32,298 nt of DNA from Reclinomonas americana ATCC 50394. Lineage: Eukaryota. Under the pieces are notes generated by a model, which saw only the letters and a list, made by a program, of their open reading frames with translations, was not told where the DNA came from and did no database searches. The stretch is taken from the NCBI GenBank assembly GCA_048213135.1, contig PS015360.1, forward strand, positions 41,636 through 73,933, read 5' to 3'. The position numbers were made by a program, and so were the translations under genes. Below, in pieces: positions 4,592 through 32,298 of this stretch (the stretch's first letter is position 1; every line of letters begins with the position of its first letter).

Positions 4592-4718
4592 GAGAGTGTG
4601 TGTGTGAGACAAGCATTGTAAACATCCGCCTTTTTGCGCCGTAATTTACACCGCTCCTTTGTTCCTTGCACAAGAGAGAGAGGAGTGCGCTCCGTCTGTG
4701 TGCGTGCTTGCGTGAGAA

Positions 4719-4720
4719 GA

Positions 4721-4751
<31 letters not shown>

Positions 4752-4790
4752 GGATAAAGAGAACAGAGAAAGAAGAGAGAGAGAGAGTGC
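4719..4790. repeat. (CA)n-(GC)n-(GA)n microsatellite cluster just upstream of WD40 gene A start
   Basis: acacacacacacacac, gcgcgcgcgcgc and gagagagagaga tracts are directly visible. Confidence 0.9.
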
Positions 4791-4809
4791 GCGTCTCGAG
4801 TTGTCAAAC

Positions 4810-9323: not shown

Positions 9324-9395
9324 ATGAACCCCATTGTCCACTCGCGAGCAATTCGGATATCTTGAGATTACACACACAAACAGAGCGCGACAGAG

Positions 9396-12300
9396 ATGAG
9401 GCACCGCGCAGTGTCACTGGCAGTCACACTGCTGCTGCTGCTCATCTGTGTGGGTGCACTGGTGTCTGGTGAGTGCCACACACACACAGTTGCACGTGCA
9501 CGTGTGTGAGTGTTGCCACTCACCCTCTTGCACGTGCGCAGTGGCAAACGCGAAAAAGTCAAAGAAGGCGCCCTTATCCTCCAACAACAAGCTGGATGAG
9601 GCCGCACGTCAGCACGAGCAGGTGAAGCGCGCACAGGCTGAGCTTGACGCAGAGAGGGCCAAGTCGGGCAAGAAGCAGAAGAAGGCGGTGTTGGGTCCGG
9701 CGGCTCCGGAGGCCGACGAGGCCGATGATCCAGCGCGACAGGAGGCCGAGGACCGGCTGAGAGACTTTGGAGCGGAGCATCGTATGCACAATCCGCAGCC
9801 GTCGCCGCTGGTGCCGCGAGGGAAGAACGAGGGCGACGATGAGATGCCGAATCGCAACCCGAATACCCCGGAGGATGGCATTGTGCCGCACAAGCAGTTG
9901 CGACAAAGAGAGAGGCTGAGCGTTTCGTTGCTGTAGTTGTGCAGTTTCGTGACGCGTGTGTTTTTGTAGTGTGCGTCGCTCGTTGCTGGACTATGTGGAG
10001 CGCAAGATGGCGTTTGATCGCTCCGGTTGCGCCTTCCCTGGCGAGCAGCGTCTGTGCATTGGTCGTATTACCGAGTACTACCAGCAGGTTTGTGTGTCTG
10101 TGCACGCATGCAGCGATGTCTTGCATGTACTGAGAAAGAAGTGATTTTCCTTTGTGTTTCTCTCCAGGTGGTCTCTGGCATCATGCACTACCTGACGGTG
10201 GAGATGGGAGGCGAGCTTCTGGAGGTGCAGATCCACGAGCATCCGGCCAGTGAGCAGGCTGAAAAGTGCGCTGGCTTCACGCTGTTTCATGTCACTTGGT
10301 GGTCGCCGAGGCCTGATTACTTGTCGCAGGCATCACATGCAGTCGATTGACATTCCGCCGCGCCAGCAATTCTACGAGCTGATCAGTGTGGCGCGCCCTG
10401 GTCAGGACCCGCCACCGACTGGCTTCTTTGATCCGTCGGCACCGCGCCTGCCGGAGAAGCAGAATGGTCCCAGCGAGCCGCCGGCCACAGTGCCTGGCGG
10501 TGTGCCGACCACCACTCCTCCGCCCGGCTCCGCACCAACCATGGCTCGCCTGCGCCGTGAGGTGCACGGCTGCATGCTGGCGTTTGATCGCGCTCGCGAG
10601 GCACAGGCTTGCCGTCGCCGCAAGCTGTACGTGGCCGAGAACGTGAACCTGACGCGTTTCTCCAACATGCCCGCCGCACTCAATCCCGCCTCGGCGTTGA
10701 CCACTGCCGCCACTGCGCTGGCGGAGACCTCGTCTGCCGAGGCCACCTCGCGTGTTGTCTCGCAGGAGCAGCTGCTGCAGCTCAGCACAAAAGTGCTGCC
10801 GTCGTCGTTCTCGTGGGTGCCGGCACTGAAGAAGCTCAACTGCCACTGGATCATGAACCAGAAGGGCTGCGGCTCCAGCTGGGCTTTTGCCGCCGCCACC
10901 GTGCTCAGCACTGGCATGTGTGTGCGCACCAAGGTCGGTGGAGCTGTGTGTGTGTGTGTGGGCACGAAAGAGGAGTTTCACTCACACCTCCCTTCACCAA
11001 CAGGGCGCCGTGCGTCAAGTGGTGTCGCCGCAAGATATTGTGTCGTGCACCTCGCCCGCCGGCTGCAGCGGTGGCTCTGCCTGGGAGGTGTTCCAGCGCA
11101 TGGACCCCGGTGCCGGCAGCAAGGATCATCCGTGGAAGGCACGTACTCAGGGTGTTTTTCTTGTCTGTAGAGTTGGAAGGTGACCTGACTGCTGTTGTGC
11201 AACAAAAAAACACAGACACTTGCAGCTCAGTGCCACCCCTACTCGGCTCGCGACGCCGCACAGGGCGACACGTGCGAAAACATCAATCGCAAGGGCGTCT
11301 GCGAGCAGCCGCGGTTGTACGGTTCGTGTTGTGAGGAAGATACGTTGGTGCTGGCCGGTGAAACTCACAGAAGGAACGCGCAGGTGGCACACACCCGGTG
11401 ATGATGGAGAAGATCCGCGACGGTCACCCAGAGGATGCCATGCACTTGCGTGCACTCATCTGGCACTGGGGACCACTGGCGGTGCGCTTTGACGTGTTCG
11501 AGGATCTGCTTACTGTTGCGTTGCACGGCAACACGCACATGATGTTAGTGTCGGTACTCACTGGCAATCATCCCACAGTATGAGAAGGGCATCTACCGCC
11601 CGACCACCGACAAGCGCGTGGGACCCCATGTGCGTCGCACTTGGAGATTTCCTTGCACTGAGAGAACTTGAGTTGTTGACATGCCCGTGTTGCGCAGGCC
11701 GCTGTTATTCTCGGATGGGGCATTGACGCCGATGAGACACCGTTCTGGATCCTGCAAAACTCTTGGTGTGTATTGTCGGGTGGATGTGCTTGGTTGTGTG
11801 ACGGCAGTGGTGCTCAACAAGAATCGCGAATGCAGGGGCAAGCACTTTGGTGAGGAGGGCATTTTCCGCATCGAGCGCACCATCGAGACGGAGACAATGC
11901 TCAACCTGCGCCACTTTGCGTGCGTTCTTCGTGCCTCACCGTGTCATAAACGTCCACGAATTGTGCACTGACAGTGATCACGCGCAGTACCATTGAACAA
12001 AGCTGGACGCCGACGTGCCCGAGCGAATGCCGCAACGGCTACCAGGATTCCAAGTGCAAGTGCTTCTGCCAGCTGGGTTTCACCGGCGAGAACTGCGATG
12101 GTTTGCTGTTGCATGTTGTGTGTGTTCTGCTTGCTTGGTTCTCCACCGTTCACTGACACGGTGCCCCCTCCTACGCAGTGTGCTCGCTGCAATGCGAAAA
12201 CAATGGCACACTTCAGCAAGACTCGTGCAAGTGCAAGTGCCCGATTGGTTTCCGCGGACGCAGCTGCCAACAAGGTCAGTCTTGCATGCAGCTTTGCCCA

Positions 12301-13194
12301 TGTGGTGCCGCGCCCTCACACCACTGTTGCCACAAAAAAACAGGCATTGAGATTGTGTCCGTCGCGGGCGAGGTCGACAACGAGTCGGTGTGGCCACTGC
12401 CGCCGTTCAAGTTGTCGAAGAAGGCACGCAAGCGCCGTAACAAGCACAAGATCCGCCCATGGGACAAGCCACCGACGAATGTGGCGGACGAGTTCCCACC
12501 GGGCTCGAAGCGCGTCAAGCTGCCAAAGCGACCGGACGGCTCGGAGCCATTCGCCGACCCGTCGCTGACCGCCGAGCAGCGTCGCGCAATGGACCGCAAG
12601 AGCATGTTTGCTCCCGAGCCATTCCTGCGCACAGTGCCGGGTGAGGGACGCATTGTTCCGACTCCCATTCGCGGCGAGAACAAGATCGAGTTCCGTCTGC
12701 GCTTCTCCAACATTAGCATCAGCGAAATGGTTTGTTTTCTTGGGGAAGCTGTGCTTGCAGTCCCCCGGTTCTTGCGTCGCCTGACCCGTTCTTCCGATGC
12801 GCAGGATAAGATTTACATTGTCGAGCGAGACGAGGGTGCCATTGGCGACTACATCAAGAAGTACCAGTTCGTGCACCCCGCATACCCAGACAAGTTCGAG
12901 TTGTTGCTGCACGTTTACGCCACGCGGTTGCACCGCAAGGGGCACTACAAGGTTTGCATGACGCCAACGGACGATCTGTTCTTGCGCGCATGTCTCACGC
13001 CTCCCCGTCTCTCTCTCTCTCTTTGCAGCTCATCCTCTCCAAGTTCCGCGGCTTCAATCGTTTCGGTGAGTCGACACACGCCACTCCTGTGCTTGTCTGT
13101 GCATTTCAATCTGATATCGTAACTCCCGAAACAAACAGGGCGGGAACGTGACTGGGATCCCGAGTACATTGTGGTGCCATTCACGCTGGCATGA
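9396..13194 (+). CDS. Secreted papain-family (C1A, cathepsin B/TIN-Ag-like) protein with N-terminal cystatin-like domain, Ser at the catalytic Cys position, two EGF-like repeats and a C-terminal extension
   Basis: Signal peptide MRHRAVSLAVTLLLLLICVGALVS. Cystatin motif YYQQ|VVSGIMHYLTV. Protease motifs LPSSFSW, NQKGCGSSWAF, SPQDIVSC..GCSGG, CHPY, GPLAVRFDVFEDLLT|YEKGIY, GPH|AAVILGWG, FWILQNSW|GKHFGEEGIFRI. EGF repeats CKCFCQLGFTGENCD and CENNGTLQQDSCKCKCPIGFRGRSCQ. TGA 13192-13194. Confidence 0.9.
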
Positions 13195-13295
13195 GGCGGC
13201 TCTGGCTGCGTCAATGTCGACGCAGAAACTTCATGTATTGTCATCAAAGTAAACAAAAAGAGAAACACAAGTACAACAGCCGCGAGGGGGAGAAG

Positions 13296-16200
13296 ATGCA
13301 GCAAATTCGACTACCAACCGCTGCGATCAAAACGCAGGTCCATGGGCGACAGCGAGAAGGTGGCCTGCTTCCCTCTTCACTCTGCTCATCACATTCTCTA
13401 AACTCACTTTGCACGTCTTCTTCTCTTCTCTCACACACGCAGCCGGCTTCCGCTCGATTCGCGGTTCCCGCGCTGCCGACCTCACGCGCGGCCTCCAACG
13501 CTCATGCGCGCTCTCGCTCTGCTCCCTCGTCAGCGCGCGATCGCCCACGTGCCTCAGTGCCCTCTGTGGGAACAGCAGCAGCAGCAGCAGCGACCGCGGC
13601 AGCCGCAGGTCGCCCTCGTCGCTCTCCTGTGGCCAGTGGATCACGATCGTCACGAACTCCTCCACTGACCACCAGCCCCGGGCGCAGCGCCAAGGCACTG
13701 GATCGCACGTCACCTGCACGCACACCGTCGCCACCGCGGCCGACTGTCACGTGCGTGCTGAATCTGCAGAAGAGTGCGCTGCTGCACCCACCGATCATTG
13801 ATTTTTCGATGTGTGATGCACACCGCAGTCGCGACTGTCGAGGCATGCTGCCGCAGCCGGTGTGCAGCATGCGCTTGGTGCAGACGCTGCAGGGACATGG
13901 TGATTCGGTCACTGCGGTGGCGTGGCATCCGGCGCAGGCCAACGTGCTGGTCAGTGGCGGGAGAGACAACTCGATGCGCGTGTGGAATTTGGCGGAGGCG
14001 TCGAGTCGTGTGCTGGGCGATCACGCGGCGCCAGTGGATCCAGTGCAGTTCTCAGCCGACGGTGCCGTGCTCGTGTCGGTGGAGGCCAAGACGCAGACTG
14101 TGAAGGTGGGATGGTGATTGTGATTGATGGTGGAAACAAAGTTCAGAGTCTTTACGTTGTGTTTGCGCTTGCAGTTCTGGGACACAGAGGGCTCCATGTG
14201 CACGCGCGCATTCACTGACAATGGTATGTCGGCCGCCGTGTCACCCTCCGGTCAAGTGTACGTTTCGTCGGAGATGGACGGGTGCATTCGCGTGCGAAAC
14301 TTTGCCACGTCGCCTACGGGCGGCAAGGTGGTGGCGACGCTGCGTGGCCACACTCGCGGCCTGCTGCGCATGCGCTTCTCACCGAGTGGCACGCGCCTCT
14401 TGTCGGCTTCGTCCGACAACACGGCGCGTGTGTGGCTCATGCAGAGCCGAGTGTGTCAACATGGTGAGAGAACACAGTGTGCGTGAGGAGCGAGTCAGTG
14501 CAGAACCGCTGACTTTTAGCGTTGCGTGCAGTGCTGGAGGGCCATACGCAGTGGGTGTGGGGTGCTGCGTGGTCACCGTCGGGTCTGCGCATCGCGACCT
14601 CGTCTGGCGACCAGTCGATCCGGCTGTGGGACGCGGTGAGTGCGTGCTGTTCGACCGTGCTCTTCAGCTACATGGCGTGCTCAATCGTCTCGCACAGGTG
14701 TCTGGCGCGTGCGAGTTTGTGCTACTCGGTCACACGGCCGCCATTCGTTTCGTAGAGTTTTCTCCCAGCGGAGAACACGTGTTGTCGAGCTGTTGCGTCC
14801 TGCGTGTACTCGGCTGCGTTTGCCACTCTCACCTGCGCTCACCACGGACACCGATTCGCGCAGCCGACGATCACAGCTTGCGCCTGTGGTCGGCCGACAC
14901 GGGTGAGTACGTGGCACACATTGGTGGTCTGTGCACGAGCATTTCGTGGAGCCCGGCGGGGAATCGGTTCGCGGCGGCAACCGAGTGCGACATTTCCGTG
15001 TTTCAAGTGGACGGTGCCCGAGGTCCGTCGCCCCTCGCCTCACCTCCAAAGACACCTTTCCTCTCTTTCTCAAGGCCGTACTTCCCAACTGCAGTGTCGG
15101 TGGATGCGGTGCCTGTGCTGCGGCAAGTCCGTGGCACCGATCAGTGCGGACAGTTTGTGGTGCTGGAGTGGAATCAGGCGAGTTTGCCGGCTGGCGCCGA
15201 ACTGCGACTGGTGCACCAGTTCCGCCACTATTCTCCTGGTGCGAGCACGCGTGCATCATGTGGTGTCCCCGGCTTCCGCTCGCCTCTCATCTCACTCTTA
15301 CCCCGCGCTCATAGCACCGCTGCCGGTCGTGTTCCTCCCAACTGGGCAATCAGGGTGGTTTGGCTGTGTGGTGTCGGTCGTCGGTGACGGCGTGCATCGC
15401 TTCCGGTTGGAGGCTCGCCGTACGTCAGCGTCCTCGTCAGTGACGGCTGCTGCAGCAGCAGCAAACGGTAGGGCGCCCCCCTTCACGACAGTGGACGCGA
15501 CCTCCTCCAGCAACACTGGCCTCTCGTTCACCAGCGACGACGACGACACCGCCCATGGCTCGTTTACTCCCATTGAAAGCCTCATGACAGAGGCTTCCAC
15601 TGTATCCACGGACAAGCATGACGATAGTTTGGGCGATGGTGCCGGCATCGGCGAGGACAGCGAAGACATGCTCACGTGGGTTCCAGGCCAGTGGCTCGAC
15701 GTGGAGTGCCACACGTGTTGCGTCGCCCGCTGCCAACTGCACCTTCATGCGATAGCTGTCCACCAACCGCCTTGCGCACAGCATTCCTGACTCTGGAGGC
15801 GCTCTCTGTGACGAGTTTCGGTGCACTGATCACGTGGGACTCGGCGGTGTTTCGCGTGCTGCCCCACTTGTGCCCGTGGCTCTTTGATGCGGAAACGGGC
15901 GAGCCGCTGGAGACGTGGTGCCCGCACACGACTTGCCATGTCGACTGCCGCGTGCTCAGTCTGCCGGATCGTGCCGTGATTCAGACGCTGAACGATGTGG
16001 CGTCGTCGGCGGGGCGCTTCGAGGTGGACCGCTTGCTGCCCGATTACGGTACGCACGGAAACGCAATCGAGGTGCTTCATATGCATGTTCTGATTTCTGG
16101 TGTGCATGCTCGTGTGCAGAGTATCGGGCAGAGGTGCGCCTTGCCGGTGTGCACGGCGTCGTGCCCGACGTGGTGGTCTTCCGCACCACGGCCTTGCCCG

Positions 16201-16898
16201 AGAGCGATCTCGCGCAGCTGCCGCCAGTCACCGAACGTGCACGATCTGTTATTCGTGCCATGGCCCCACTGGTGGAGCATGCCAACTTGCCAATGTCGCC
16301 GTCGCCACTGGGAGTTGCAGCACTGTCGCCACGGCCACCACCCGCAGCAATGATCCGCGACCAGCTGGCGGAGCTGGATACGTGGGCGATGCAGCAGGCG
16401 CCGACCGCCGATCTCTGTCGGCGTCTGCTCCAGCGCAGCGAAAGTGCCACCGTGCAGTTGCCACCGTCGTCAGCCGACGCAAGCGCTCGCGTGGTGGAGC
16501 TGGCAGTGGAGCACTGCCGACGAGTGCGCGATCACGATGAAGATCCGCACCTCGAAGCCTGGTCGCAGCTCGAGCACGCCGCGCGAGCCGACGCCGCCGC
16601 TGCTGCAGCCGCCGCTCAGAGCCTACAGGCCGGCAGTGTGACCGAGCTCGCCAAGGACATCAACGCGGCGCGTCGAGCCGCCGAGGTGCACCGCGACTTT
16701 TTGCAGCGCGAAATCAGCCGCCTCGATCGCCAGCTGCTGTACATGGACGCCCTGGAGAGACTAATCGCCAGTCAGAGTGCGGATCGGACCTCGCGGCAGC
16801 AAGCTGTGCTGCAGGAACGGGCGCAGGCGCTCGAGGAAGTGGCTGCGTGCGCCGCCGACTGTAGACACATTGTCAGAGGCGAAGGCGGGACTGAGTGA
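13296..16898 (+). CDS. WD40-repeat / FN3-like / coiled-coil protein (paralog B of 4810-9323); exact 3' end uncertain
   Basis: [117 protein letters not shown]. Post-WD segments are collinear with paralog A ([11 protein letters not shown] / DDCGSCLVVEF; WVPGQW / WSEGQW; RLLPDY|EYR / RLLPGTRYR). A further intron near 16846-16932 could shift the stop. Confidence 0.85.
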
Positions 16899-17226
16899 AT
16901 GAACTGATTTCATCTTGGATAACACGAGGCAGGTGAGAGGATACGCAGCGAGTATCTGTGCGGCATGCATGTGTGTGTGCGCGTCGGTTTGCGTTGTGTT
17001 TGGCGTGCGTGTGCAGGAGTGCGAGATGGCACACACGCACAAGACATGGTTGTCTGCCTCTCTCTCCCTCGCCCTTTCTCACACGCACGCACACCCTCGC
17101 CTTCTGCCTGCTCTCGCTCTCTCCTTCACACTCGTGTGGGGCAGTGGTGGATGCGAGTGAGCATTTGTGTTGTGTGTGTTCTGTGGTCTAATGACGAATT
17201 TGATGATGATGCAGAGAGAGAGAGGG

Positions 17227-18309
17227 ATGAGCAGTCGCAGCAGTAGCGCAGGCAGTGCGTCGACCATGGATGGCAGTGGCGCAGTTGTCGCCAATGCGGA
17301 GGCTGCGGGAGCTGCCGCGCGTGTGCCAGCCACCAACGGAGCCGCTGCCGGAGGCAATGACAGCAGCGCCGATGAGGCACATGCGAGTGCGAGTGCAGGT
17401 GGACAGGGAGCGGGTGGCAGTGCACCGGTGATGCTGGCGCAGGCGGTGCAGCAGGCACCGGGTGCACACTCGTCAACAGCCATGTTCTCGTCGGTGGCGA
17501 GGGCGGCGTCGCCGCTGGAGGATCCGCTGTTTGGTCGCGCGCATGAGTTGGAGTTGATTGCGCAAAAGGCTGAGGTGGCGGCCGCCAGTGGAAAGCCGTT
17601 TGTGTTGGTGTTGAGGTGCGTGCGTGTGTGTGTGTGTGTGTATGGGTGTGTCTTGCTCGTGTGCATGGTGATGTTATTTTCACACTTTGCTGCAGTGCAC
17701 CGGGTGGCTTTGGTAAGACCAAGCTGGCGTATGCAGCGTGGAACATCCTGCTGCAGTGGTTCACGGGGCCGAAGCTGTGGGCGCGTCTTCGTGGCCAGCA
17801 TCACTTGCGAGTTTCGTCACCATTGTCGCGTGTCTGTCTGTGCACTCGGTTGTGTGAGATTAACGAATGTCCTTCGCTCGCCATCAGATGGATGGCATCC
17901 TGACCGAGCTGCTCATGTCCTACGACTCCAAGTCCACCGACACGCTGAAGAAGTCAATGGAGCAGAAGATGAGCATGTACAGAGAGTTGCGTCGTGTCTC
18001 GTCGTGTGCTGTCGTTTCCCCAATGTGTGGTGGTCGTTGACACGCTGGGTGAACTTTGCAGACTGGTGAGCAAGAAGGGGCTGGTGCTTCTCGACCACGT
18101 GCATCAGCTGTCGGCAATCGACGAACTCGTCCGGGCACCCGACGCCAACTCGGCGTTCCTGGTGACTACGCGCGAGGATGTGTCGGAGATTCACGTGGTG
18201 GACATGGTGCGTCACATTTGTGTTATATTGCGCGCGCGCGCGTGTGTGTGTGTGTGTGTGTGTGGAGAGAGTGCTCACGCATGCATCGCAGGAGGCCTTG
18301 GTGATCCCA
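17227..18309 (+). CDS. STAND-class P-loop NTPase (NB-ARC-like), 3'-partial, runs into assembly gap
   Basis: After an Ala/Gly/Ser-rich leader: 'LFGRAHELELI' (FxGR..E motif), Walker A 'VLVLS|APGGFGKTKLA', Walker B 'GLVLLDHV', sensor-1 'SAFLVTTR'. Four GT-AG introns. Confidence 0.8.
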
Positions 18310-19031
18310 NNNNNNNNNNNNNNNNNNNNNNNNNNNNNNNNNNNNNNNNNNNNNNNNNNNNNNNNNNNNNNNNNNNNNNNNNNNNNNNNNNNNNNNNNNN
18401 NNNNNNNNNNNNNNNNNNNNNNNNNNNNNNNNNNNNNNNNNNNNNNNNNNNNNNNNNNNNNNNNNNNNNNNNNNNNNNNNNNNNNNNNNNNNNNNNNNNN
18501 NNNNNNNNNNNNNNNNNNNNNNNNNNNNNNNNNNNNNNNNNNNNNNNNNNNNNNNNNNNNNNNNNNNNNNNNNNNNNNNNNNNNNNNNNNNNNNNNNNNN
18601 NNNNNNNNNNNNNNNNNNNNNNNNNNNNNNNNNNNNNNNNNNNNNNNNNNNNNNNNNNNNNNNNNNNNNNNNNNNNNNNNNNNNNNNNNNNNNNNNNNNN
18701 NNNNNNNNNNNNNNNNNNNNNNNNNNNNNNNNNNNNNNNNNNNNNNNNNNNNNNNNNNNNNNNNNNNNNNNNNNNNNNNNNNNNNNNNNNNNNNNNNNNN
18801 NNNNNNNNNNNNNNNNNNNNNNNNNNNNNNNNNNNNNNNNNNNNNNNNNNNNNNNNNNNNNNNNNNNNNNNNNNNNNNNNNNNNNNNNNNNNNNNNNNNN
18901 NNNNNNNNNNNNNNNNNNNNNNNNNNNNNNNNNNNNNNNNNNNNNNNNNNNNNNNNNNNNNNNNNNNNNNNNNNNNNNNNNNNNNNNNNNNNNNNNNNNN
19001 NNNNNNNNNNNNNNNNNNNNNNNNNNNNNNN
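18310..19031. other. Assembly gap (722 N)
   Basis: Run of N, with microsatellite tracts nearby on both sides. Confidence 1.
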
Positions 19032-19128: not shown

Positions 19129-20142
19129 CCACTCGTCTCACCGGCGCTCTCTGCTTCTTCGTGTGGATGTCGGGATTCGCACTGTACACGTTGGATGAGT
19201 GGATCATTCATCGCGTTCTGTTCCACATGGTGGCGCTCGTTGCGTTTTCGCCCACCACAACTGTCATGCATCCTCGTCGCTGTGACAACTGACGGACGTG
19301 CGCACGCGTGCAGAAAGCCAAGTGGCCCGACCGCATCTACTACATTGTGCACGGGCGGCATCACAAGAAGCCGGACGAATACGATCGCGTCGTGCTGCCG
19401 GTGGCACACCAGTGGGTGCTGGTGTTCATCATGACCACGTTCTTCCACAGTGCGTTCACTCACTGCATGAGATGCGATCCGGATCACTGGTGAGGCTGAC
19501 ATGCGTGTCGACGTGCAGTTGCCTTGATCTTGCCGCTCGGTGGTGTCTTTACGCACACGTGCGCTCTCGGATCTGGCATGATGGCCGGCTACCTCTTCTA
19601 CGAGATTGTGCATCTGTACTCGCACCAGCATCCGCTGATCATGGCGGTGCCATTCTTCCGCTTCCTCGAATCGTCGCGTGATTACCACGGCTTCCACCAC
19701 CACGGCGACTCGTCCAAGGCGTACGGCTTTTGTTGCGTACTTGTGCTATTCACGGTGGCGTGTTCTTTCTTACTCATTCGATGCAACGAATAGGCTCGCC
19801 GGTGTGGGACTGGGTGTTTGGCACCATTCCGAATGTGTGTGGCCTTTCGAAGCCATCGTTGTCTCACGCGACACGCAACTCATTCTCGTCGTTGCTACAG
19901 GACCCGCATCTCAATCCGTTCTCCCTGTCGGCCATGAACACAATCCCCGGCTTCCTCGCCGCCCTGCCGCTGCCCATTCCATTCTACCACTGGCTGATGA
20001 TGTCATGGGCCGATGTGCCGGCCACCAAGGTGCCACTGTCCACCAAGTTGCGTCTCTCCACTCCTCTTCACAGTCACCGTGTGTGCACCTGACACTGACT
20101 CATTTTATCCCCTGCACCGAGCACAGATCGGTCACCGAGTGA
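19129..20142 (+). CDS. Fatty acid hydroxylase superfamily (FA2H/Scs7-like) membrane di-metal domain, 5'-partial (upstream exons in gap)
   Basis: Four His boxes after splicing: YTLDEWIIHRVLFH, IVHGRHHKKP, YEIVHLYSH, DYHGFHHH, followed by YGF|CSPVWDWVFGT. Hydrophobic TM segments between them. Last exon ends TGA 20140-20142. Confidence 0.9.
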
Positions 20143-20157
20143 CCCAATTGTTCTGCG

Positions 20158-20731
20158 NNNNNNNNNNNNNNNNNNNNNNNNNNNNNNNNNNNNNNNNNNN
20201 NNNNNNNNNNNNNNNNNNNNNNNNNNNNNNNNNNNNNNNNNNNNNNNNNNNNNNNNNNNNNNNNNNNNNNNNNNNNNNNNNNNNNNNNNNNNNNNNNNNN
20301 NNNNNNNNNNNNNNNNNNNNNNNNNNNNNNNNNNNNNNNNNNNNNNNNNNNNNNNNNNNNNNNNNNNNNNNNNNNNNNNNNNNNNNNNNNNNNNNNNNNN
20401 NNNNNNNNNNNNNNNNNNNNNNNNNNNNNNNNNNNNNNNNNNNNNNNNNNNNNNNNNNNNNNNNNNNNNNNNNNNNNNNNNNNNNNNNNNNNNNNNNNNN
20501 NNNNNNNNNNNNNNNNNNNNNNNNNNNNNNNNNNNNNNNNNNNNNNNNNNNNNNNNNNNNNNNNNNNNNNNNNNNNNNNNNNNNNNNNNNNNNNNNNNNN
20601 NNNNNNNNNNNNNNNNNNNNNNNNNNNNNNNNNNNNNNNNNNNNNNNNNNNNNNNNNNNNNNNNNNNNNNNNNNNNNNNNNNNNNNNNNNNNNNNNNNNN
20701 NNNNNNNNNNNNNNNNNNNNNNNNNNNNNNN
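20158..20731. other. Assembly gap (574 N)
   Basis: Run of N followed directly by a (CA)n tract. Confidence 1.
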
Positions 20732-21006
20732 ACACACACACAGACACGCTATGGGTGCGTCTCTCTCACACACCTTGATGCCCATGGGAGCTCTCTGCAG
20801 CAACAAGAGTGTCGACAATCACGCGCGTCCTGCACAACTCGTCGCGATTGTCGGATGAACTTCAGCTGCGTGTGGTACTCGTTTCTCTCTCTCTCTCTCT
20901 CCACCTTGCACATCTTCCCTTATTTTGACGATCAGAGTGAAGCGCGTGGAGCCCATCGAGACACGACTCTCACTTAAGCGCATACAATAATACAACAACG
21001 CGCGCC

Positions 21007-22456
21007 CTACAGCACAGCGCAGCAGCCTCCACCACCCACACGACCGGGAGCGGGTCGAGGAGTTGGCATTCGCATGTCGGGATTCAAAAACGCCTGCTTC
21101 GTATGAGTGAGTCGACTTATTGCAATTGCAGCAGCAACAGACGCGAGTGGCGACGCAACAAGCACGGCTGCATCGAACACGTCCTTGATGCCTACAAAGT
21201 CGAGCGCACTGCACTCCACAAATGCCACCGCGCCGATTGCCCGCGCACACTGGTCGCCCTCGGCGGTTTGCACCTGCGGCGGCCTGGGACTGTCGGCCGT
21301 ATGTCGCAAATCGATCTTGGTGGCCACCAGCACCACCTTGGGCGTTGTCGTCCGTTGCTTCAACTCGGGCAACCACTGCACGATGATGAGAAGAAGGGGA
21401 GAGGCGACGATGATGCGCACAGCAAAACATGCATACCACGTCGGTGATATTGGCAAACGAGGCTCGGTTGTCGACACTGTAGCACAAGACGAACACATCG
21501 GCCTCCTCGTACGCCACTCGCCGCAGTCGAGCTGGTGCGAACAGTGTGTGTGAGAGAGAGCGAGAGACAAGGAGCGAAATAGGTCCACAAGCGCACACAC
21601 CGAAATCCTCTTGCCCTGTGTATGTATGTGTGTGCGCACGCAGCGAGTAAGCAACCACGCAAGCCACTGGTGAGCAGAGAAGACAGAGACAGGGAAGGAG
21701 AGCACACTCACCGCCCGTGTCATGCAACACAATATCCAAACTATCGGCTGCAGATGTTGGTGCGCTGCGCTCCCACCATCAGTGAGAGAGAGAGAGAGAG
21801 AAGCGGGCAGAGAGAGACACGAGCACACCTCGGCTGCTCGCCCTCTTTCCACGCAGTCATTGGAGGAACTTGCACCGAAGGAGTCCTGATGATAATCATC
21901 ATTGCCGTGAGTGAACATAACGACATAACAACAGCCGTGTGTTGCATGCGCGCAACGTTGCCTCCAGCTCTGTTCTGTTAAGAGGGACGTTGACCGTGTA
22001 CACTGTGTGTGTGGAAGCGCACGTGTGTGAGAGAGAGAGAGAGAGACTGCATGCGTGATGATGACAACAATCCAACCACTGCAGCACAGGCGGGAAGTCA
22101 GTCATCTCATCACATGCACACTCACTCTCTCACTCAGACACACTGTGTCGCACGCAACTCGAGCACTGTGGGAGCAAAGGCACGACCGGCGTCGGTGAAC
22201 TCCTCCGTCAGGCGACCGCGCAAGTATGACAGCAAGAGACACGTTTTGCCTGCGAGAGCACACGCTGTGTGTGAGTTGCCTCTGTCACATGCGCTCTTGG
22301 TGAGCACAGGCACAGACCAACAGAGCCATCGCCGACAACAACGCCTGTGAGGAGAGCAGTGTGAGTGCCCTCTCTGTGCTCTCTCTCTCTCTCTCTCCTT
22401 GTCACCACGCAACAGTTGAATGAGGGCGGAGGCTGAGCAGCAGCTGTTTCTGCCAT
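21007..22456 (-). CDS. Rho-family small GTPase (atypical, ~11 exons), CaaX-prenylated
   Basis: Spliced: MAETAAAQPPPSFNC|VVVGDGSVG|KTCLLLSY...FAPTVLD|V|YTVNV...LDIVLHDTGG|QEDFA|RLRRVAYEEADVFVLCYSVDNRASFANITDV|WLPEL...VVLVATKIDLR...FVECSAL...VFDAAVL|AFLNP...GGGGCCAVL*. G1-G5 boxes and C-terminal CAVL present. Confidence 0.92.
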
Positions 22457-22548
22457 GTTCCGCTCCACAACAACAGAGAAAGAGTGATGGAAGGACGGCG
22501 GACACTTTTTGTACGTGTGGTTTGCATTAAAAAGGAAAATCGTCACTC

Positions 22549-25500
22549 TCATGGTCTCTGCCAGGAGGACGGTGTCGGCGCGGAGCCGACGGAGGCGGTG
22601 CCGGAGAGCTGATGAAAGGCGAGTGCCGAAGCGGAGGTGCCGGCGCCGGACGACGTTGTGCTGCTGCACACGGGCGGGTTGAAGACGGCGACTGGAATAC
22701 CGTGCTGGAGGTGTAGTGCGCGGACGCAGAACATGAGGAAGCGGTAGACGTTAAAGACGCCGCTGGAGTGGTTCGGCACGGAGGGTGATGCAGTGCCTGC
22801 TGTTGCTGCTGCCGCTGCTGCTGCGGCTGCTGAGGAAGCGCTGCCAGCTGACGAGTGTGAGGATGAGCCGGCTGACGAAGCAGATCCACTGGACATTCCG
22901 GTCGGCGCGGCACCGGACTCGCCCGTCAATTGCCCCTTCCGCGAGTACCACTCCTGCGCGCGCATGAGGAACTTAACAGCGTCCTTGGTCTTGCGCTCGG
23001 GCACAAAGAGCAGCGTGCAGTCGGGTCGGTAGCTGTGTGTGTGCACGCAGGCGGAGCAGTCAGCGAGGCTGTCTGTCTTCATGCGACACATATGTAAGAC
23101 ACAAACCTCAGCAGCGTGATCAACACCTCCGAGACGTCGATCAGATCGGCCCAGGTGAAGAGGAACACGGGCAGGTTGAAGGATTCGGTGTTCGAGTCGA
23201 TTTGCGTGATGACGTCGAGTGGCGACACCTGCAGCTGCCCCACGTCGAGGAAGCGCACGTACTTGTACTTGCGCCGGTACGACGAGTCGCTCTTGCCGAG
23301 TCGGATCAGCGGCGTGTGGAATGGCGAGTTCGACGAGGCGTCGGTGATGGCGTCGGGCACCTCGTTGCGCAGATGCATGGCATGGAAGTACAGCTCAGCA
23401 ATGTCGGCCTTGCGCTGTCGCTCCTGGGCCGCGAACGCCTTGGCATCGGTCACCGACGAGGCGTAGCACGCAAAGTACTTGGGCACGAGCCAGTTGCCGG
23501 AACGCTCCGTTGTCTGTGCCAACGAGTGAGTGAATAAAAAAAAGAGTCCACAGCTCATCTCTCCACAGACCTCAGACAGGTGGCGTGCCAACAGACTCTC
23601 CAGCGTAAACGAACGCGCCAGCAGCGCCTGGAACATGAGCTCCCACGGGAACAGACGCAGCGAGTGGTTCGTCAGCAGGTACAGCGGCGCTGGTGGCACT
23701 CGCGTTGTGTGCAGATCGGGGAACTTTGGCGCATCACTGGTGAAAATGCGCGCCAACAGACCACGCGACTGCGGTGCCTGTGGCGACTCGCTCGTCACGT
23801 CGGCCAGCGCGCACGGCATGCCTTGCGCCTGCATGCCGACATACGCAAATGGACCCGTAAACACCGTGTCGCGCAACACCTCCGCGAAGCGAACGGCATC
23901 CTCCACAGCCGAAGTGCCAGCCGCCTTCTTCTCCACACGACCCTGACTGACGAGTGCTCCGAGGAACTCTTGCACCTCACTGTCGAGCGTGGTCGCCGCT
24001 CCGGCCACAAGCGTGTCACCAATCACGTCCGATCCTGTGAGACGCAGTGCCGAGGAGCGACGCATCGATGCGGCGGTCTCGCCACCAATCGACGTCGACG
24101 AAGACCGCTGACGTCCACTAAACGGATGCACCGAGGTGAAGCCAGTTCCGGGAAGGTAAAACACCACCACGTCGTACAGCTGGATGGCGTACACCAACTT
24201 GCCGAGGAGCCGCGGAGGCGTCCGTGTCACCGGGAACGGACTGGTGGCACTGCTGGCGGCACCTAGTGAGGGCACAGCCAAGCCGCCACTCTTGCCGTGG
24301 AAGAGTCCTCCGAACTCGGGATCGGCCGACGGTGGTCGACCAGCAGCAGAGGCACCACTCACTGGAGCTGCGGTCGAGCAGGGGCCGAATGAGCACAATC
24401 GACAAGAGAGCAAAAGGAGGGGAAAAACTGAGTGCCCTCTCTCCGACTCACCGATGGGGCTGAAGAGGCCACGCACTCCACCGTCGAACACCGACGATCC
24501 TTGCAAATTGGGCGCACTGGTCATGCTGGGCAGGTGACCACCCAAGCCTCCGCCACCGCCACCACCGCCGACGCCACCGACGCCAACGCCAACACCACCA
24601 CCACCCGACGCAGTGGTGAACGACGCCGCGCGAATGTACTCCATCAAGTTCACCAATCGCCTCGCAATTCTCCGATTCTGTTGCTGGAACTCCACCTGCA
24701 CACAAACCCCGAGTGCACTGTGTGAGACGACACCAGCAAGAAAAATGGAGAGGAAAGCGCGCCCTTCTCACTCACATCCGACAGTTGACCACGCGAGTAC
24801 GACCGCGAAATGAGACGCAGGCGGTAGAAGAGATTCCAGCCGCGCTCGGCATAGCGTTCCATGTCGAGCGTCAGGTTGAGGGCGTTCGCTTGCAGTTTCT
24901 GCAAGTGAACACCAGTCAGTTATCAGGTGACAGATGCTGGCAGGTGGAGGAGAGACATTGGCTGACCTGCGAGGCCGTCGAGCGCACAGTCTGCGAGCCA
25001 ATCATGGAGAACCAAGTGCACATGCGACTTCTCCTACGCGAACTCTTCCAGCTGCCCGATCCCGACGAACTGCCACTTGAGCTGCCCACGGATCCATACC
25101 GGCGACCATTTGTGGTTCTATGACTCTGCCAGTCAGCGGCGCAACACACACACAGCAGGAAGAGGGACACGTGAACAACGCAACAGGCTGCCAACACGCC
25201 TTGTCCGCGTCCCCGACGACGAGTCCAGCGGAGTGCCGTGGAAAGTGGAAAAGTAGTTGCGCTGTGGTGTGGAGGTGGCCGTGTTCTTGGCACGACTGCG
25301 ACGTGCCTCCAGTGCTTGTTTCCGTCTTTCGTGACTGCGCGTCGTGTACCCCGACATGATGCCGGCGCCGCCAGATGCAGAACCACCAGGGGCTGCCGCG
25401 GTGGTGGTCGACGACGACGACGAAGAGCTGTCGCTGCCACTCACAGTGTCGCGAACGGCAGAGAAACTCGGTCGTGGTCTCCGTCTGCACATCACACAAA

Positions 25501-28500
25501 TCAGTGGTAGGTTGGTGGCGACGACAGCGGACACAACCACTCGCGCAACTCGTCAGAGGTCATCACAGGTACTGCGCCATCTTCCGGTGACTCCTCCACA
25601 GGTCGCTTCCTCGCCTGCGTACATCAATCAGCAACTCACGCCCTGCCGCGGCAACAAAGGCATTTGTGTGCATTACGCACCTCGTGCAGCTCCATCTCCA
25701 GCAAGAACAACGCGTCGAAAATCATGAGATTCTCATTCACCACCTCCCTGTCGAAGCACACGAGTGCACGCGAGAGCCGCAGCAAAATGTCGTAAATCTG
25801 CCACATTCACGCACACGCAGAACGTCAGCGGCTGCGGGCAGCAAATACGTTGCGCATCGCTCCGCACCTTTTCTACAAACGGAGGCGGGGCACCGCGTGA
25901 CAGCAACACGGACGTGCCATCCATGAAAAACGAAAACAGCTGATCTCGACATTCGCTCCAAAATGCGCGCGCAGAAGCTGCAGCGATGCACGTCAGCGGT
26001 GAGGAAGCGGATGCAGCAGGGAGAACTTTCAAATTCGAAAAAAAAAAACTCACCGGTGCGCTCTTGCAGAATGCGCAGCTCGGCCATCAGACAGTAACAG
26101 TGGAGACTCATGAAAATGTCACATGTCCGTGCCGCATACGTCATGGACACGGTGAGCAACCGATCAATGTCCGACATGTGCAGCACGCGCTCATCGTCAC
26201 CGCCCTCTGCAGGCACAACGATTGAGGAACGTGCGATACAACAACCGAGTGGACTCGTCGAAAAAAAACGCACCGCAGTGAAGGAGCGCCACCTCGCCGT
26301 ACGGTTGCCGCAAAAGTGCGACCGGCACAAACATGTGGTTGAGCATGGTGCGCGCCTGCGACAAGTAGCACTTGCTCACGCGTCGCTCATCGGCAACAAT
26401 GCGGTAGTAGTGCGCGGCAATCTCGAATGTGTCCAGCGCCAGTGCGACAATGCCACCCACACCGTTGTAGGTGTGAATGTTGTGCTCCAGGGCCAGCAGC
26501 GGCTGCGTCAGGTACTTTGGAAAATGTGAACAAAAGAGTCCACCAGTGATCTGCATGCCGCCGCCAAATCCTGCACGACCTCGGCCGAGTCAGACACACC
26601 ACCGCATGACATCACACTGCACCGCATCCACGCTGCTCACCCGTCATGCCAGCCATGGTCAACGTGGTGGGGAACTCGAGCAGATGCTGACGGTCAGCAA
26701 TGGCCAGCAAGATCTTGCCCTTCATGTACAAGTGCCGACCGAGGCCACTCAAGTTGACGGGCGAGCACATGGAGAGCAGCACGTCGACCCACAGCAGCGC
26801 CTCGACAAAATAGCCCTGCGGCAACCAAAAAATCAATCAATCAACTGCGACTTGTTGCTCGCGTGGAGCAGACGTGTACACACCCCATGGTAACAACACC
26901 GGCATGCCAACTCGACCACCGACAGGTCGGCGCGGACAAGACTGCACGCAGCATGTGAGACAGAAGACTCCATGGTGTGAACCGCTTTCCACGCACCCTG
27001 CGTCACTACTTGATCGCTCTCCTGCAGCACGTCGCGGAACAGGCTCATCCAGCGACCGCGCCAACGTCGCCGTCAGACCCACGGCCTGCTGGAACAGACG
27101 CTTCTTGAGGTACGCCTGCACACACACACACACACACACACACAGTGGTATGAGTGAACACGAAGTAAGACAGGACTACTCGCTTCCTCCCCCCATCTGC
27201 ACCTCGGCCAAGAGCATGAGAACACCGTGCGCCTTTCCACGTGGCAGATCGGCCTCCTTGAGATCCTCCAGCAGGTCGATCGCACGCTCAAAGTAGTACC
27301 CGTCGAGGAACAGACGCGCAAGCTTGACTTGCAAATGGAGGTAGTTGACGTCGATGCGGTACAAGTAGCCGGTCTCCATCTCGTCCAGCTCATCAATGGC
27401 ACTCATGATGAGCAACTCGGCACCGCGCAAGTCACCTCGCTCCAGCGCCATGTCCGCCAGAATCTCCGAAACGTACACAATCTGGCACAAGGGATGGATA
27501 TGAGGGGTGGCGAAGTCGATAGCACTACTGCTTCGTGTATTTCACACACCTCGTTAATGTTGCGATCCTCGCGAGCCTTGCGCAGCACATTGGCGTAGTA
27601 ATCGGTGGCTCGTTTTGCGTCGGAATGCTCTCGACATATCAACGCCAAGCGCCGTATCAACGTGTGGTCCGTGTGGCCAGGGTGCATCAGTGCATACAAC
27701 TGCAGCGAGCTCTCAAAGCACGCAATCGCGTACATGTATTTGCCGTTCGCCAGCAGAATCTCCGCAAACTGAGGAAGCGGAGAAAACATGTGAGGTGAGC
27801 AGCAGCAGCAGCAGCAGAAGCGACAGGAGTGTGTGTGCTTCACTTACCTCAGCAAGCACTGCTGCTCCGAGATCAGACAACACGGCGGCAACACAGCGCA
27901 CGTGTTGTGGCATGTGGTCGACCACAAAGACGGCCTCGAACAGCAGATTTTCTGCCATCATCACATTGCGCTCGTAGTTGCGCAAATGGAGTCCGAGAAG
28001 CCACGCCATCTTGGCCTTGACCTGCACCAACAAGCACTTAGGTCATGCACTGGTCCCGTGAAATGTAGCAACACGCAGCAACGACCCACCTCGGTGAACG
28101 ATGCAATCTTGCCGTACAGCTCCCACATTGCTCGGAGACGAATAGTCGGATCTGTGGCATCCATCGCAAGATCAGCGCCACAAAACCCAACAGTAGAATG
28201 ATGAGGAGCAACGCCGTACGTACCAAACACGAACTGAGAGATGGAAGAGAACTGCTCGGTGACAATGCGGTGACAATGTCTCAGGCAATCGTCTGCGAAA
28301 TCCGCCTCCGAGAACTGCGCAAATGACAGCGACTGGAACAGCACCAGGTGAGCTTCACAGCGCGGCATACAGCGCATGAAAACACAAGATGCGAACGCAC
28401 CTCGTCGCGCCGCAGTGGCAACATCGTGAGCGGACTCTTGCCGGTCAAGTACAAATGCAGGACGCACAAGGCGTCGGCACACAGCTCCTCTTGCGGTGTG

Positions 28501-31500
28501 TTTTCCAGCAAACCGCGACTGCGACCCTCCACGTTCGAGGCAGGTCGGGTGGACGACAGGCGAGCACCACTTGCACTGCACGATTCACAGACGTCATCAT
28601 CCAAACACACACAACGCATGCGCCACATCGCCCCGACAACCGACCTCAAGTTGAGGCTGCGCAGCACCGAGAAGGTACTCTGCAGTACCCGACACAGCGA
28701 CTCGATCACAAGGCGCTGAACAGTGGGCAAGTCGGGAAACGCAAACGTGTGGTGCGCGAATCGCTCGGCCTTGCTCAAGTGCACAAAGGGAACGTGCTCA
28801 GGGAACACGTCAATCAAAATCTCGCACACTCGCTCAAACGCGTTGTGATTCTCCGGCGCCCAGTCCACCGACATGACACGAAGCAACTCCTTGGATCGAT
28901 GAAAGAATCCTGTCACACGTTCGCACGACTCTTCAGCACCAGCGTTCCTCCACCTCAGCAGCGAACACAAAACACACACAAACACACCATTGTGATGCTT
29001 GTAGTCGTCCTCGTCCATCACCGTGCGCTTGGCATCGGGTAGCTGCGTGAAATAGTCCAACGTCGCCTCCATGGCCACCTGCTTCTTGGCATGGCGACAG
29101 GCGCCAGCCACGAATACGAGATACTCGCTTGTCCATTGAGGTGAGAACTGTGTAACACGCAAGAGTAGGTAAAATAAAAGGATTCTGCGGGTGCTACCAC
29201 ACAGAAGCGACGACACCTTGTCGACGTAGAGGACTCGTGCGCGCAAATGTGACAGCGAGAACGTGTCCGACTTGATGGTGTCCGCATGTTTGCTGACAAT
29301 CTTGACGAGCCACTGTTCAAGTTCCTCCTCGCTCAGTAGCTTGATGCCGTCGCGGGTGAGCAACGTCAGCAGCATGGGCGGCTTGTGGTATTTGACAATG
29401 TGGATGTTGTTCATCATGGGGTCGTCGGGAGGCAAGAACTTGAAGCGCGACGGGAACAACTCCTCCTCGGCGGCCGTGGACGCGGTACCGCCTGCCGCAC
29501 CATCTTCGCCGGCACGCATGATCGCGCGCAGCATGGCCACCGTTGAGTTGATTGGAGGGTCGGTGGAGTGCGTGTCACGAGGAACCGCCGACGGATTACT
29601 GCATCGTGACGAAACTCAGAACAATATGCAACCGGCGGCAAACATGCAACTGCGAGAGACAGGTGAGTACGCAACGCTCTGCTCTCCTCCTCCTCAATCT
29701 CCAGATCCCAGTCGGACTCGCTGGAGTCGTCGGCTGCTGATGAGGCCGCCACCGCGGCTGCCATTGCCACAGCCGCACCCATGGATGCAGCGCCGGTGGC
29801 CGCCGACGAACCAATTGGTGTTCCATTGCCGCCACGAGCAGAGAGAGCCAGCAGCGGCGACGCAGTGCCGGCCAAGGCATTCAGCGTCGGCTGCATCACC
29901 GACGATCCGTCCTCAGAGTCGAAAGCATCGCTATAATTGGAACCCGTGCCGATACTGCGATGCTTCGCCTGCTGGAGTCCGGACCGGCCGGCCACTGACT
30001 TGGCGGTCTGCAACAACGAGAGCGCCTCGTGTTCCAAGATCGGATCGTCGATCTGGGACACACACATCGAGGCAATGAGATTCGATCACACATACGAACA
30101 AGAGAAGAGGTGCGGACGTGCCTTCCTGGCGCCCACGATGGCGTGCTTTTGGAACTGGAACGACAGATCGTCGTCGCCGAGGTCGAGTGCGATTTGAGCA
30201 ATGTACAAACACGACATGGCAAATGGTCTGGAAGTATGAAGGTGCGCGTGTGAGCCTTCAACCACATAGTCTCCTCTCCCTTCCCTTTCTTTCCTCCTCC
30301 CTCACCTGGGATAAAATACAGCACCCAACGGCGCAGAAGTACATAGCCTTATGGCGTCCACCAAATGCCGACCTGCCACTGTGGAGCGACCAGCGTCGAG
30401 AGCACACCGGCCCAACAACGCCTCAATGTGCGCTCGCACTCCCGGCAACTCCACCTGAGCCCACGCACCCACAATTCAGCGACATGCATGAAACAGGCAG
30501 GTCTCACTCGATCTTTGTGGCAGCTAATCACCGTGCTCAAAGCCTCCAACGCCCGCTCCAACATCTCGGTGGCGGCCGTAATGTTCTGCAGCTTGATCAA
30601 CGCCTCGCTCATGTGAGCCAAGCACTCGGTCTGCAGTCGGTCAACTGCGGACGACAAAAAAGACGATGAGCGACCCGACCTCTCACGCATCATGCTGAAT
30701 GAGAGACGAAACAATCGGCTCCGCTCAGCGTGTCGCGATACGACGAAATGCGACTGTACGACTGCTCCAGGCGCTGGAAGCACTCGGCATCTAACCGCTT
30801 GTCGCGAAACAGGAGCGCCGTGTCCATCGACACGCGACACTCGTTGACCACGTCACCCTGCTCGCGTGCGGCCGATAACCTGCTCTCCAAGTTGCGTACT
30901 TGCTGCGACACATCCACATAATCGTCCTCCTCTCCCTCGTAGCCAGTGGCGGCCGACGACGACGTGGCCGACTTGCGTGATGGAGATGAACCGAGGGCGG
31001 CCACAGCCTCGAGGAAAGACTCCTCGTCGACACCTGTGTGACAACATTGGTGAGATGGCCCACATGCGCGACCCCTTCCGCTGTACGCAACGTGGAAGGC
31101 CGGGTACCAGATCGGCAAACACTCGAAGCAACTCGCGCTCCTCATCCGTGATCTTGTGACCGCCGTTGGCCGACGCTCCCGCTCCTCCACTCCACGAACC
31201 ACGACGCCGACTCGACAATCGTTTCCTCACCAAGTCACGCTGTGCTCTCTTGCTGCGCGCCAGTGCCCCTTGCAGGCCTGCATCACACCAAATAAGCACC
31301 TGTCATTCAACAACCCTCACTGGCACATACACACGCACCACCAGGCGCCGGTGGAGGTCTCTTGCGCGCCGAGTTATTAAACAAGTGTCCCTGTCCATCG
31401 GCAGTGACAGGCGTCGCCGTCGCCGAGTTCTGTCCACTGCCACCACCACCACTGGCACTGCCACTGGCCGTCGCCGCCGCTGTGAAATGATCGGGGGTGT

Positions 31501-31738
31501 TGGCAGGCGAGTCCTCAAAGATGAAATCGTCGCCCCAATCCTCCTTTGGTGCATTGTCGGCCGAATGACCGAGGATCCTCAACTGCATGAGCGCGACAGT
31601 GAGTGTGGTGGGAAAGAGAGAGAGAGAGACTCTCTCAGTCGTTGATCGCACCGGAGCTGGCCTCTGTTGCTTGGCAGCGGCACCGCCCACTACCAAGCCG
31701 CCCTCCTCAATATCTGACCAATCCTCCGAGTCATCCAT
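22549..31738 (-). CDS. Very large (roughly 2,500 aa, ~25 exons) TPR/alpha-solenoid protein with acidic-Trp motifs at the N-terminus and a degenerate CHAT/separase-like C-terminal domain
   Basis: Open spliced frame from ATG 31738 to TGA 22551-22549. TPR-like helices: 'LAHMSEALIKLQNITAATEMLERALE', 'FAEILLANGKYMYAIACFESSLQL', 'LARLFLDGYYFERAIDLLE'. C-terminal 'PLYLLTNHSLRLFPWELM' resembles the CHAT L..lP[WF]E.L motif. Confidence 0.8.
27119..27144. repeat. Intronic (CA)n/(TG)n microsatellite forming the 3' end of an intron of the TPR gene
   Basis: Uninterrupted CA tract adjacent to the minus-strand acceptor. Confidence 0.9.
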
Positions 31739-32298
31739 GATGATGATGATGATAACTGATCACTTGTGTTCTCTCGCTCGCTCCCTGAGGAGGAGACAAG
31801 ACGGGAAACACACACACACGCGAGAGAGAGGCGTGTGTGTGCGTGTGCGTGTGTGTGTGGAGGGACCTGAGGCCACTGCGCGAAACCCTGCGTGTGTCGA
31901 TGCATCATGAGCGAACAAACGAAGCACAGAATCATCGCTCAATAACACATACAGAGACAGTGAGCATACGCGTGCGTGTGTGTCTGTCTGTCTCTCTGTG
32001 TCACTGCCTGTGCACGCGCGTGTGTGCGTGGAAAGAGAGAGAGACACACACAATGGCGCACACACTTCCTCACGCACTCACCACACACAGACTCCAATGC
32101 CGCACACGCGCTCACAATGGAGAACAACACCACAGAGACACTGTGTACACAGGAGAAGAGCACACACAGAGCTCACACTGACACACACACACACACACAC
32201 ACAAGGTCGTTGCACCAACAATGAGTCACACAAGCGCGGACAATCAATCACTCACACAAGTGCGACGAGGTGTGCGCGTGCGTGCTGTCTCTCTGTGT
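31739..32298 (-). promoter_or_regulatory. Low-complexity CA/GA/GT-rich 5' UTR and upstream region of the TPR gene
   Basis: No credible coding frame; dense (CA)n, (GA)n, (GT)n and (ATC)n tracts like those before other gene starts here. Regulatory role is inferred from position only. Confidence 0.4.

Follow-up and report, generated by a model that had tools for sequence, protein, structure and literature searches.

A candidate two-nucleotide coding exon in the switch I region of a divergent Rho-family GTPase gene of Reclinomonas americana

We analysed a stretch of 32,298 nucleotides (nt) from Reclinomonas americana ATCC 50394 (GenBank assembly GCA_048213135.1, contig PS015360.1, positions 41,636 to 73,933 of the forward strand), hereafter the window, in which a Rho-family gene on the minus strand carries two bases, TG at positions 22078-22077, enclosed by two very short introns. 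The gene was modelled with 10 exons, from an ATG at 22456 to a stop codon at 21009-21007. Its exons of 43, 27, 91, 2, 46, 57, 53, 15, 95 and 369 nt add up to 265 codons with no internal stop, and the seven introns other than the two beside TG (introns 3a and 3b) are 61-96 nt long. The features on which the argument draws are given below, a slash marking the boundary between exon and intron.

22414..22456, minus strand: exon 1, 43 nt, from the ATG to ...TTCAACT; its final base T is followed by GTTGCGT
22345..22413, minus strand: intron 1, 69 nt; donor T/GTTGCGT; CTCAC 17 nt from the 3' end
22318..22344, minus strand: exon 2, 27 nt; P-loop VVVGDGSV
22250..22317, minus strand: intron 2, 68 nt; donor G/GTCTGTG; CTCAC 22 nt from the 3' end
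22159..22249, minus strand: exon 3, 91 nt; GKTCLLLSYLRGRLTEEFTDAGRAFAPTVL plus GA of an Asp codon; final base A
22079..22158, minus strand: intron 3a, 80 nt; donor A/GTTGCGT; CTGAC at 22101-22097; acceptor CTGCAG
22077..22078, minus strand: proposed 2-nt exon TG; T would end the Asp codon (GA+T) and G would open the Val codon (G+TG)
22003..22076, minus strand: intron 3b, 74 nt; donor G/GTTGGAT; a (CT)n tract; CTCAC at 22031-22027; acceptor CACACAG
21957..22002, minus strand: exon 5, 46 nt; (V)YTVNVPLNRTELEA..., beta-2 strand; final base C, then GTTGCGC
21601..21615, minus strand: exon 8, 15 nt; GQEDF of DTGGQEDF (G3/switch II), with introns of 96 and 69 nt around it
21007..21375, minus strand: last exon, 369 nt including the stop; TKIDL (G4), ECSAL (G5) and the CAAX end CAVL

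Judged by its sequence, the predicted product of this gene is a divergent Rho/Rac-type GTPase. The spliced model holds, in this order, GDGSVGKT, PTV, DTGGQE, TKID and ECSAL, with CVVVGDGSVGKT as the P-loop segment, and we take these to be G1 (GxxxxGK[ST]), the switch-I Thr, G3 (DxxGQE), G4 ([NT]KxD) and G5 (SA[KL]); CCAVL directly before the stop reads as a CAAX prenylation box. Placement in the Rho family is based on a Pfam match, on the best PDB matches and on a search of representative proteins. More specifically, the last exon matched Pfam Ras with E=1.5e-8, and the best 60 PDB matches listed for it all belonged to the Rho family (plant Rac-like ROPs, TC10, Rac1/3, Cdc42 and Rho-like proteins). 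An exhaustive search of 1.84 billion representatives with the 122 amino acids of this exon returned 670 matches, which were generic Rho relatives, 52% identical at best, none of them an orthologue. The same exon was compared with a collection of 5.8 billion proteins in the longer-length range, giving one weak match among 2188 candidates (a Cucumis Rac, 33% identity) and no orthologue, and in metagenome contigs scanned for the Rho locus 561 stretches matched the pattern, of which none was confirmed.

The predicted protein resembles Rac, Rop and Cdc42 in its G1 to G5 motifs, in the PTV.D.Y spacing of switch I (with TG included) and in the CAAX end. It differs from them by about 7 extra residues before switch I, by about 28 extra residues between beta-2 and beta-3 and apparently by a short region in place of the Rho insert; the extra residues were also seen against the family profile described below (7 and about 28, respectively). 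The Rho insert is a helix of about 13 residues between beta-5 and alpha-4, and the corresponding stretch of the protein, DLRHTADSPRPPQVQTAEG, fits the profile region with no extra length, the relatives in the profile themselves having short inserts. Within the last exon, a separate stretch of 63 nt (21097-21159, minus strand) starts as T/GTTGCGT and has CTCAC 11 nt before an AG. Its length is a multiple of 3 and the frame is open whether it is kept or spliced out. By these signals it could be a tenth intron, whose splicing would drop 21 residues (VASPLASVAAAIAISRLTHTK) just past the G5 helix.

At the TG site, exon 3 ends in ...CCCACAGTGCTCGA, the last letters being CTCGA, at 22159, and GTTGCGT follows from 22158. 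The A of CTGAC lies 19 nt before the last G of intron 3a, which closes with CTGCAG at 22079, and the A of CTCAC lies 25 nt before the 3' end of intron 3b, which closes with CACACAG at 22003. Exon 5 then opens at 22002 with TGTACACGGTCAAC (first letters TGTACACG). Both introns are therefore complete: within 80 and 74 nt, respectively, each has a donor, a branch-like CTNAC and a terminal AG. Between the AG of intron 3a and the GT of intron 3b lie 2 nt, in a unit of 156 nt. Translation with TG gives APTVLDVYTVNV, including PTVLDVYTVNV, and translation without it (22158 joined to 22003) gives APTVLDVHGQRPS and then a stop, after 8 codons. A preliminary description of this DNA had proposed a 2-nt microexon here, on the grounds that the 80-nt intron has a CTGAC branch motif and a ctgcAG end, that skipping TG shifts the frame and that including it yields a protein collinear with Rac and Cdc42. 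We re-read the minus strand and recomputed the site by script, and found every coordinate and letter to be correct, the branch motif, intron end and frameshift among them. Searched by blastn against the window, the two half-introns 3a and 3b matched only simple (CT)n and (CA)n repeats, and thus show no sign of either being a mobile repeat.

To list the competing gene structures, GT donors from 22209 to 22060 were paired with AG acceptors ending at 22109 to 21989, requiring introns of at least 40 nt, either a single one or two around an exon of 1-12 nt. This enumeration yielded 15 in-frame, stop-free GT-AG models, so that the earlier argument by elimination, in which the donor C/GTGCGA was the sole other in-frame option, was incomplete. 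Models were scored against a profile of 31 Rho-family relatives (175-270 amino acids, with a P-loop motif) taken from the representative search. The TG exon model scored highest of the 15, at 194.4 bits. It was followed by a model with a 10-nt exon, TGGTTGGATT (22078-22069), whose donors are at 22166 and 22068 and whose product reads PTWLDLYTVNV (192.1 bits), and by two models in which the PTV segment is deleted (189.1 and 188.5 bits). A single intron of 151 nt, from the donor C/GTGCGA at 22153 to the acceptor at 22003, scored 187.7 bits; as the preliminary description had said, it lengthens switch I by one residue (PTVLELLYTVNV). A single intron of 112 nt from 22158 to 22047, adding LSLSLSHTCASTHT, scored 186.6 bits, one of 61 nt from 22139 to 22079 scored 186.2 bits, and the other 8 models fell between 185.9 and 187.7 bits.

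Only in the TG model and the 10-nt model were switch I and beta-2 aligned to the profile without an insertion. Both an intact reading frame and collinearity with the family call for inclusion of TG, and the 10-nt alternative is collinear as well. The microexon proposed by the preliminary description thus came out as the best of the 15 on profile score, and below also on donor class, intron length and chance, even though one of the 14 other models is likewise collinear. We also checked the spacing of switch I in the relatives themselves. In the proteins of 151 relatives, 63 P-loop motifs were found, 40 of them followed by an xT[VIAL] stretch and 23 not. Counting from the Thr, 30 of these 40 stretches have D or E at +3 and an aromatic residue at +5, as the TG model does; the remainder have D or E alone (6), an aromatic residue at +6 (2), an aromatic residue at +5 alone (1) or neither (1).

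Splice signals were then considered across the window. We used a rule-based detector that takes a donor of the form G/GTNNG or non-G/GTTGCG, then CTNAY, and as acceptor the first AG that lies 8 nt or more beyond CTNAY. It recovered 9 of 9 introns of the gene model, with one acceptor off by 5 nt. Compared with dinucleotide shuffles, on both strands of the window, candidate introns of 60-79 nt were in excess (76 observed, 28.0 expected), and no such excess was seen at 80-89 nt (9 observed, 12.9 expected), at 140-159 nt (18 observed, 17.3 expected) or at 100-299 nt (122 observed, 140.5 expected). The introns flanking TG lie at or just above the one enriched range. No sign of a population of introns of about 150 nt was found in the window, keeping in mind that the choice of the first acceptor makes the detector disfavour long introns.

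Because such rules could impose their own donors, we also used a rule-free comparison, in which the 312 GT sites lying 58-81 nt upstream of a CT[CG]AC motif with its first AG within 30 nt were set against the 4021 other GT sites. Two donor classes were enriched at intron distance, G/GTNNG (43 observed, 17.5 expected) and non-G/GTTGCG (15 observed, 2.3 expected), and two other settings agreed. The remaining classes were not: non-G/GTNNG (64 observed, 78.8 expected), non-G/GTNNH (153 observed, 163.6 expected) and G/GTNNH (32 observed, 46.0 expected). The two donors of the TG model, A/GTTGCGT and G/GTTGGA, fall one in each enriched class, whereas the 151-nt donor C/GTGCGA and the 10-nt donors A/GTGCTC and T/GTTGTC all fall in classes that are not enriched. 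Within the gene model the same division holds for all nine introns, since 3 of 3 exons that end in a base other than G are followed by GTTGCG and 6 of 6 that end in G are followed by GTNNG.

The unusual GTTGCG donor has a second, independent foothold in this gene. The donor of intron 1, T/GTTGCGT, is needed for an in-frame P-loop irrespective of the TG site, and the last T of exon 1 together with exon 2 (FNCVVVGDGSVGKT) aligned with the P-loop of the Rho profile. The 7-mers that stood out in the window were TGTTGCG (8 occurrences, 0.8 expected), CGTTGCG (4, 0.8 expected) and GGTGAGT (4, 0.8 expected). GTTGCG is biased towards the strand of gene direction, with 20 against 8 occurrences in 1-18300 and 10 against 6 in 20732-32298. 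A literature search for GTTGCG as a class of intron donor or splice site returned no relevant paper. Very short exons, too, are found elsewhere in the gene: the 27-nt P-loop exon and the 15-nt GQEDF exon are both fixed by homology, with flanking introns of 68-96 nt.

We next estimated how often such an arrangement arises by chance. Pairs of rule-conforming introns 1-30 nt apart numbered 15 in the window against 3.7 per dinucleotide shuffle. For the site itself, 60000 single introns of 151 nt were simulated, keeping the real 3' end and drawing the rest from a first-order Markov model. A rule-conforming tandem with an exon of 1-5 nt appeared in 108 of the 60000, was in frame in 42 and in 3 yielded a protein as long as that of the TG model.

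These results bear differently on the competing explanations. The single 151-nt intron, under which the AG-TG-GT arrangement would be coincidental, is in frame, obeys GT-AG, has a donor with G at +5 and is what an ordinary gene predictor would choose; its one extra residue in switch I would sit in a protein that has other loop insertions. Its switch I and beta-2 segment nevertheless falls into an insertion in the profile alignment, its donor class and its length range both lack enrichment, and an in-frame tandem of the kind observed arose in few of the simulations. Moreover, a perfect A/GTTGCGT donor 5 nt upstream would compete with it and, joined to 22003, would shift the frame. We consider this explanation improbable.

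We regard it as similarly unlikely that the locus yields no normal protein, whether through an assembly error (a small indel), as a decaying gene copy or because most transcripts skip TG, are frameshifted and are degraded. The window belongs to a draft assembly, as its two runs of N indicate (18310-19031, 722 bases; 20158-20731, 574 bases, the latter about 280 nt downstream of the Rho stop), and the searches of the representatives and of the 5.8-billion collection found no close orthologue. On the other side, G1, the switch-I Thr, DTGGQE, TKID, ECSAL and the CAAX box are all intact in 265 stop-free codons over 10 exons, and an indel would leave unexplained a rule-conforming AG-TG-GT exactly where frame and collinearity are restored.

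The 10-nt exon, with an 88-nt intron from A/GTGCTC at 22166 and a 66-nt intron from T/GTTGTC at 22068, uses the same two acceptors as the TG model, has two introns of plausible length and is in frame and collinear, only 2.3 bits below. Both of its donors, however, are of the unenriched non-G/GTNNH class and break the rule common to the nine introns of the gene model, and it places Trp where Val after Pro-Thr is nearly invariant (V in 30 of the 40 stretches from relatives); we judge it very unlikely. Equally unlikely is a longer protein produced by the 112-nt intron (AG at 22048-22047, 14 extra residues) or by another single intron such as the 61-nt one, for although these options are in frame and stop-free and the 112-nt intron has the strong A/GTTGCGT donor, they score 186.2-187.6 bits, their extra residues are a translated (CT)n tract of a kind that recurs within introns 3b, 5 and 7, the AG at 22047 has no CTNAY motif 9-32 nt away, 112 nt is beyond the enriched length range and the donor T/GTCTGA at 22139 is in a class that is not enriched.

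Several points weigh against taking TG as an exon. Intron 3a, at 80 nt, is just outside the 60-79 nt excess, in a bin with fewer candidates than expected. The intron statistics come from one 32-kilobase window and from a simple detector that takes the first branch motif plus AG, and the null simulation draws on a first-order Markov model in place of real intron sequence. Pairs with a 2-nt spacer occur once in the window against 0.2 per shuffle, so that one such pair somewhere in 32 kilobases would be unremarkable by itself and it is its place that matters. The lead of the TG model on the profile is 6.7 bits over the 151-nt model and 2.3 bits over the 10-nt model; and since this protein already tolerates loop insertions of 7 and about 28 amino acids, an insertion of one residue is compatible with homology. 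Finally, no orthologue or paralogue was found in which conservation of AG-TG-GT could be followed, and the exon is predicted from DNA sequence. Set against these points are the anatomy of the site, the frame requirement, the profile fit, the splice-site statistics and the low chance expectation at this position. On balance, we think it likely that this divergent Rho-family GTPase gene does contain a 2-nt coding exon, TG at 22078-22077, and that it is constitutive.

Under this reading, TG would be included in the messenger RNA (mRNA), where T would finish an Asp codon and G start the codon for Val, so that switch I and beta-2 read PTVLDVYTVNV, and the expected junction would be ...GTGCTCGA-TG-TGTACACG.... 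The short and complete introns on either side suggest intron definition, each of the two (80 and 74 nt) being recognised across itself. With just 2 nt between the AG and the GT, stepwise removal is probable, given that U1 and U2AF cover the splice sites to which they bind. Introns 3a and 3b may be taken out one after another in either order, as in recursive splicing, with the 2 nt kept. Valid sites would remain in both orders, because the G of the microexon stands at -1 of the second donor and its T directly follows the first acceptor as an exon base. A broader proposal is that splicing in this lineage follows strict intron definition with two donor codes (G/GTNNG, and GTTGCG after an exon end other than G), and that exons of 1-3 nt are spliced routinely and constitutively throughout the genome. 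We advance it tentatively, as possible rather than probable. In that case recognition would not depend on exon length, and tiny exons could arise from the gain of a short intron a few bases away from an existing one.

Microexons of animals are thought to be aided by intronic enhancers. Those of Drosophila are reported to have, for the most part, lengths divisible by 3 and to be subject in many cases to alternative splicing (PMC8042270). The TG exon would be similar to animal microexons of 3-30 nt in being a very short internal coding exon (PMC8042270), and differs in that it has 2 nt, that the frame demands its inclusion and that it looks constitutive. Recursive splicing has been described for introns longer than 10 kilobases, where it works through zero-nucleotide ratchet points (AG|GT) and leaves nothing in the mRNA (PMC13149111). 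The TG site is like such points in that a 5' site comes right after a 3' site, an arrangement that implies the removal of adjoining intron segments in steps. It is not a zero-nucleotide recursive site, however, because two bases that the frame needs stand between AG and GT; in the model they are retained as coding, and the whole unit has 156 nt.

The closest precedents are in plants. APC11 has a constitutive 1-nt exon that has been experimentally proven (Guo and Liu, 2015; PMC4674806), and the 1-nt exons of APC11 and VPS55, confirmed by RNA sequencing (RNA-seq) and reverse-transcription PCR (RT-PCR), had been overlooked by annotation (Yu et al., 2022; PMC8831610). The TG site shares with these an exon below codon size, two GT-AG introns, the keeping of frame in a conserved protein and absence from standard annotation. 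It differs in its 2 nt, in its very short introns (74-80 nt) and in one donor of the unusual GTTGCGT type. For the plant exons there is proof from RT-PCR, RNA-seq and reporter assays, together with conservation throughout the land plants, whereas the evidence for TG is genomic. Exons shorter than a codon are thus a known kind, of which TG would be a further case; in a literature search judged by titles and the openings of abstracts, no spliceosomal coding exon of 2 nt was found.

As for the surroundings of the gene, 108 of the 190 stop-to-stop open reading frames (ORFs) of at least 95 amino acids in the window were scanned against Pfam, and matches were obtained to Arm, protein kinase, WD40 and papain-like peptidase families. 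Gene orientation switches along the window, with Pfam matches and donor motifs on the plus strand in 1-18300 and on the minus strand in 20732-32298. A long ORF lies upstream of the Rho gene (frame 22552-23394, ending ...SSWQRP), and between its stop and the Rho ATG at 22456 there are about 95 nt (22457-22549, minus strand) that are locally richer in AT. Either this segment alone separates the two as a very short spacer between genes, or it joins the upstream ORF to the Rho gene through an unrecognised link. An open frame of 562 codons (23082-24767, minus strand) matched no Pfam family, and none of the 8000 candidates scored for it from the 5.8-billion-protein collection was a relative. Further candidate tiny exons between rule-conforming short introns are located at 12786-12790 (minus strand), 19794-19801 (plus strand), 6848-6860 (plus strand) and 6357-6476 (plus strand), with sizes of 5, 8, 13, 26 and 23 nt, the last three being in or near a plus-strand WD40 gene.

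If real, TG would place a constitutive coding exon of two bases within switch I, which binds effectors, of a Rho GTPase, and would rank among the smallest exons proposed for any gene, in a lineage distant from the plants in which 1-nt exons have been proven. It would show the reach of intron definition when splice sites nearly touch, and would bear on how neighbouring short introns are removed step by step, in a recursive-like manner. For annotation, gene models that bar exons shorter than a codon would break this Rho gene or alter its switch I. Should intron definition with two donor codes hold as well, the lineage would offer a natural system for studying the minimum size of an exon and the sequential use of adjacent 3' and 5' splice sites.

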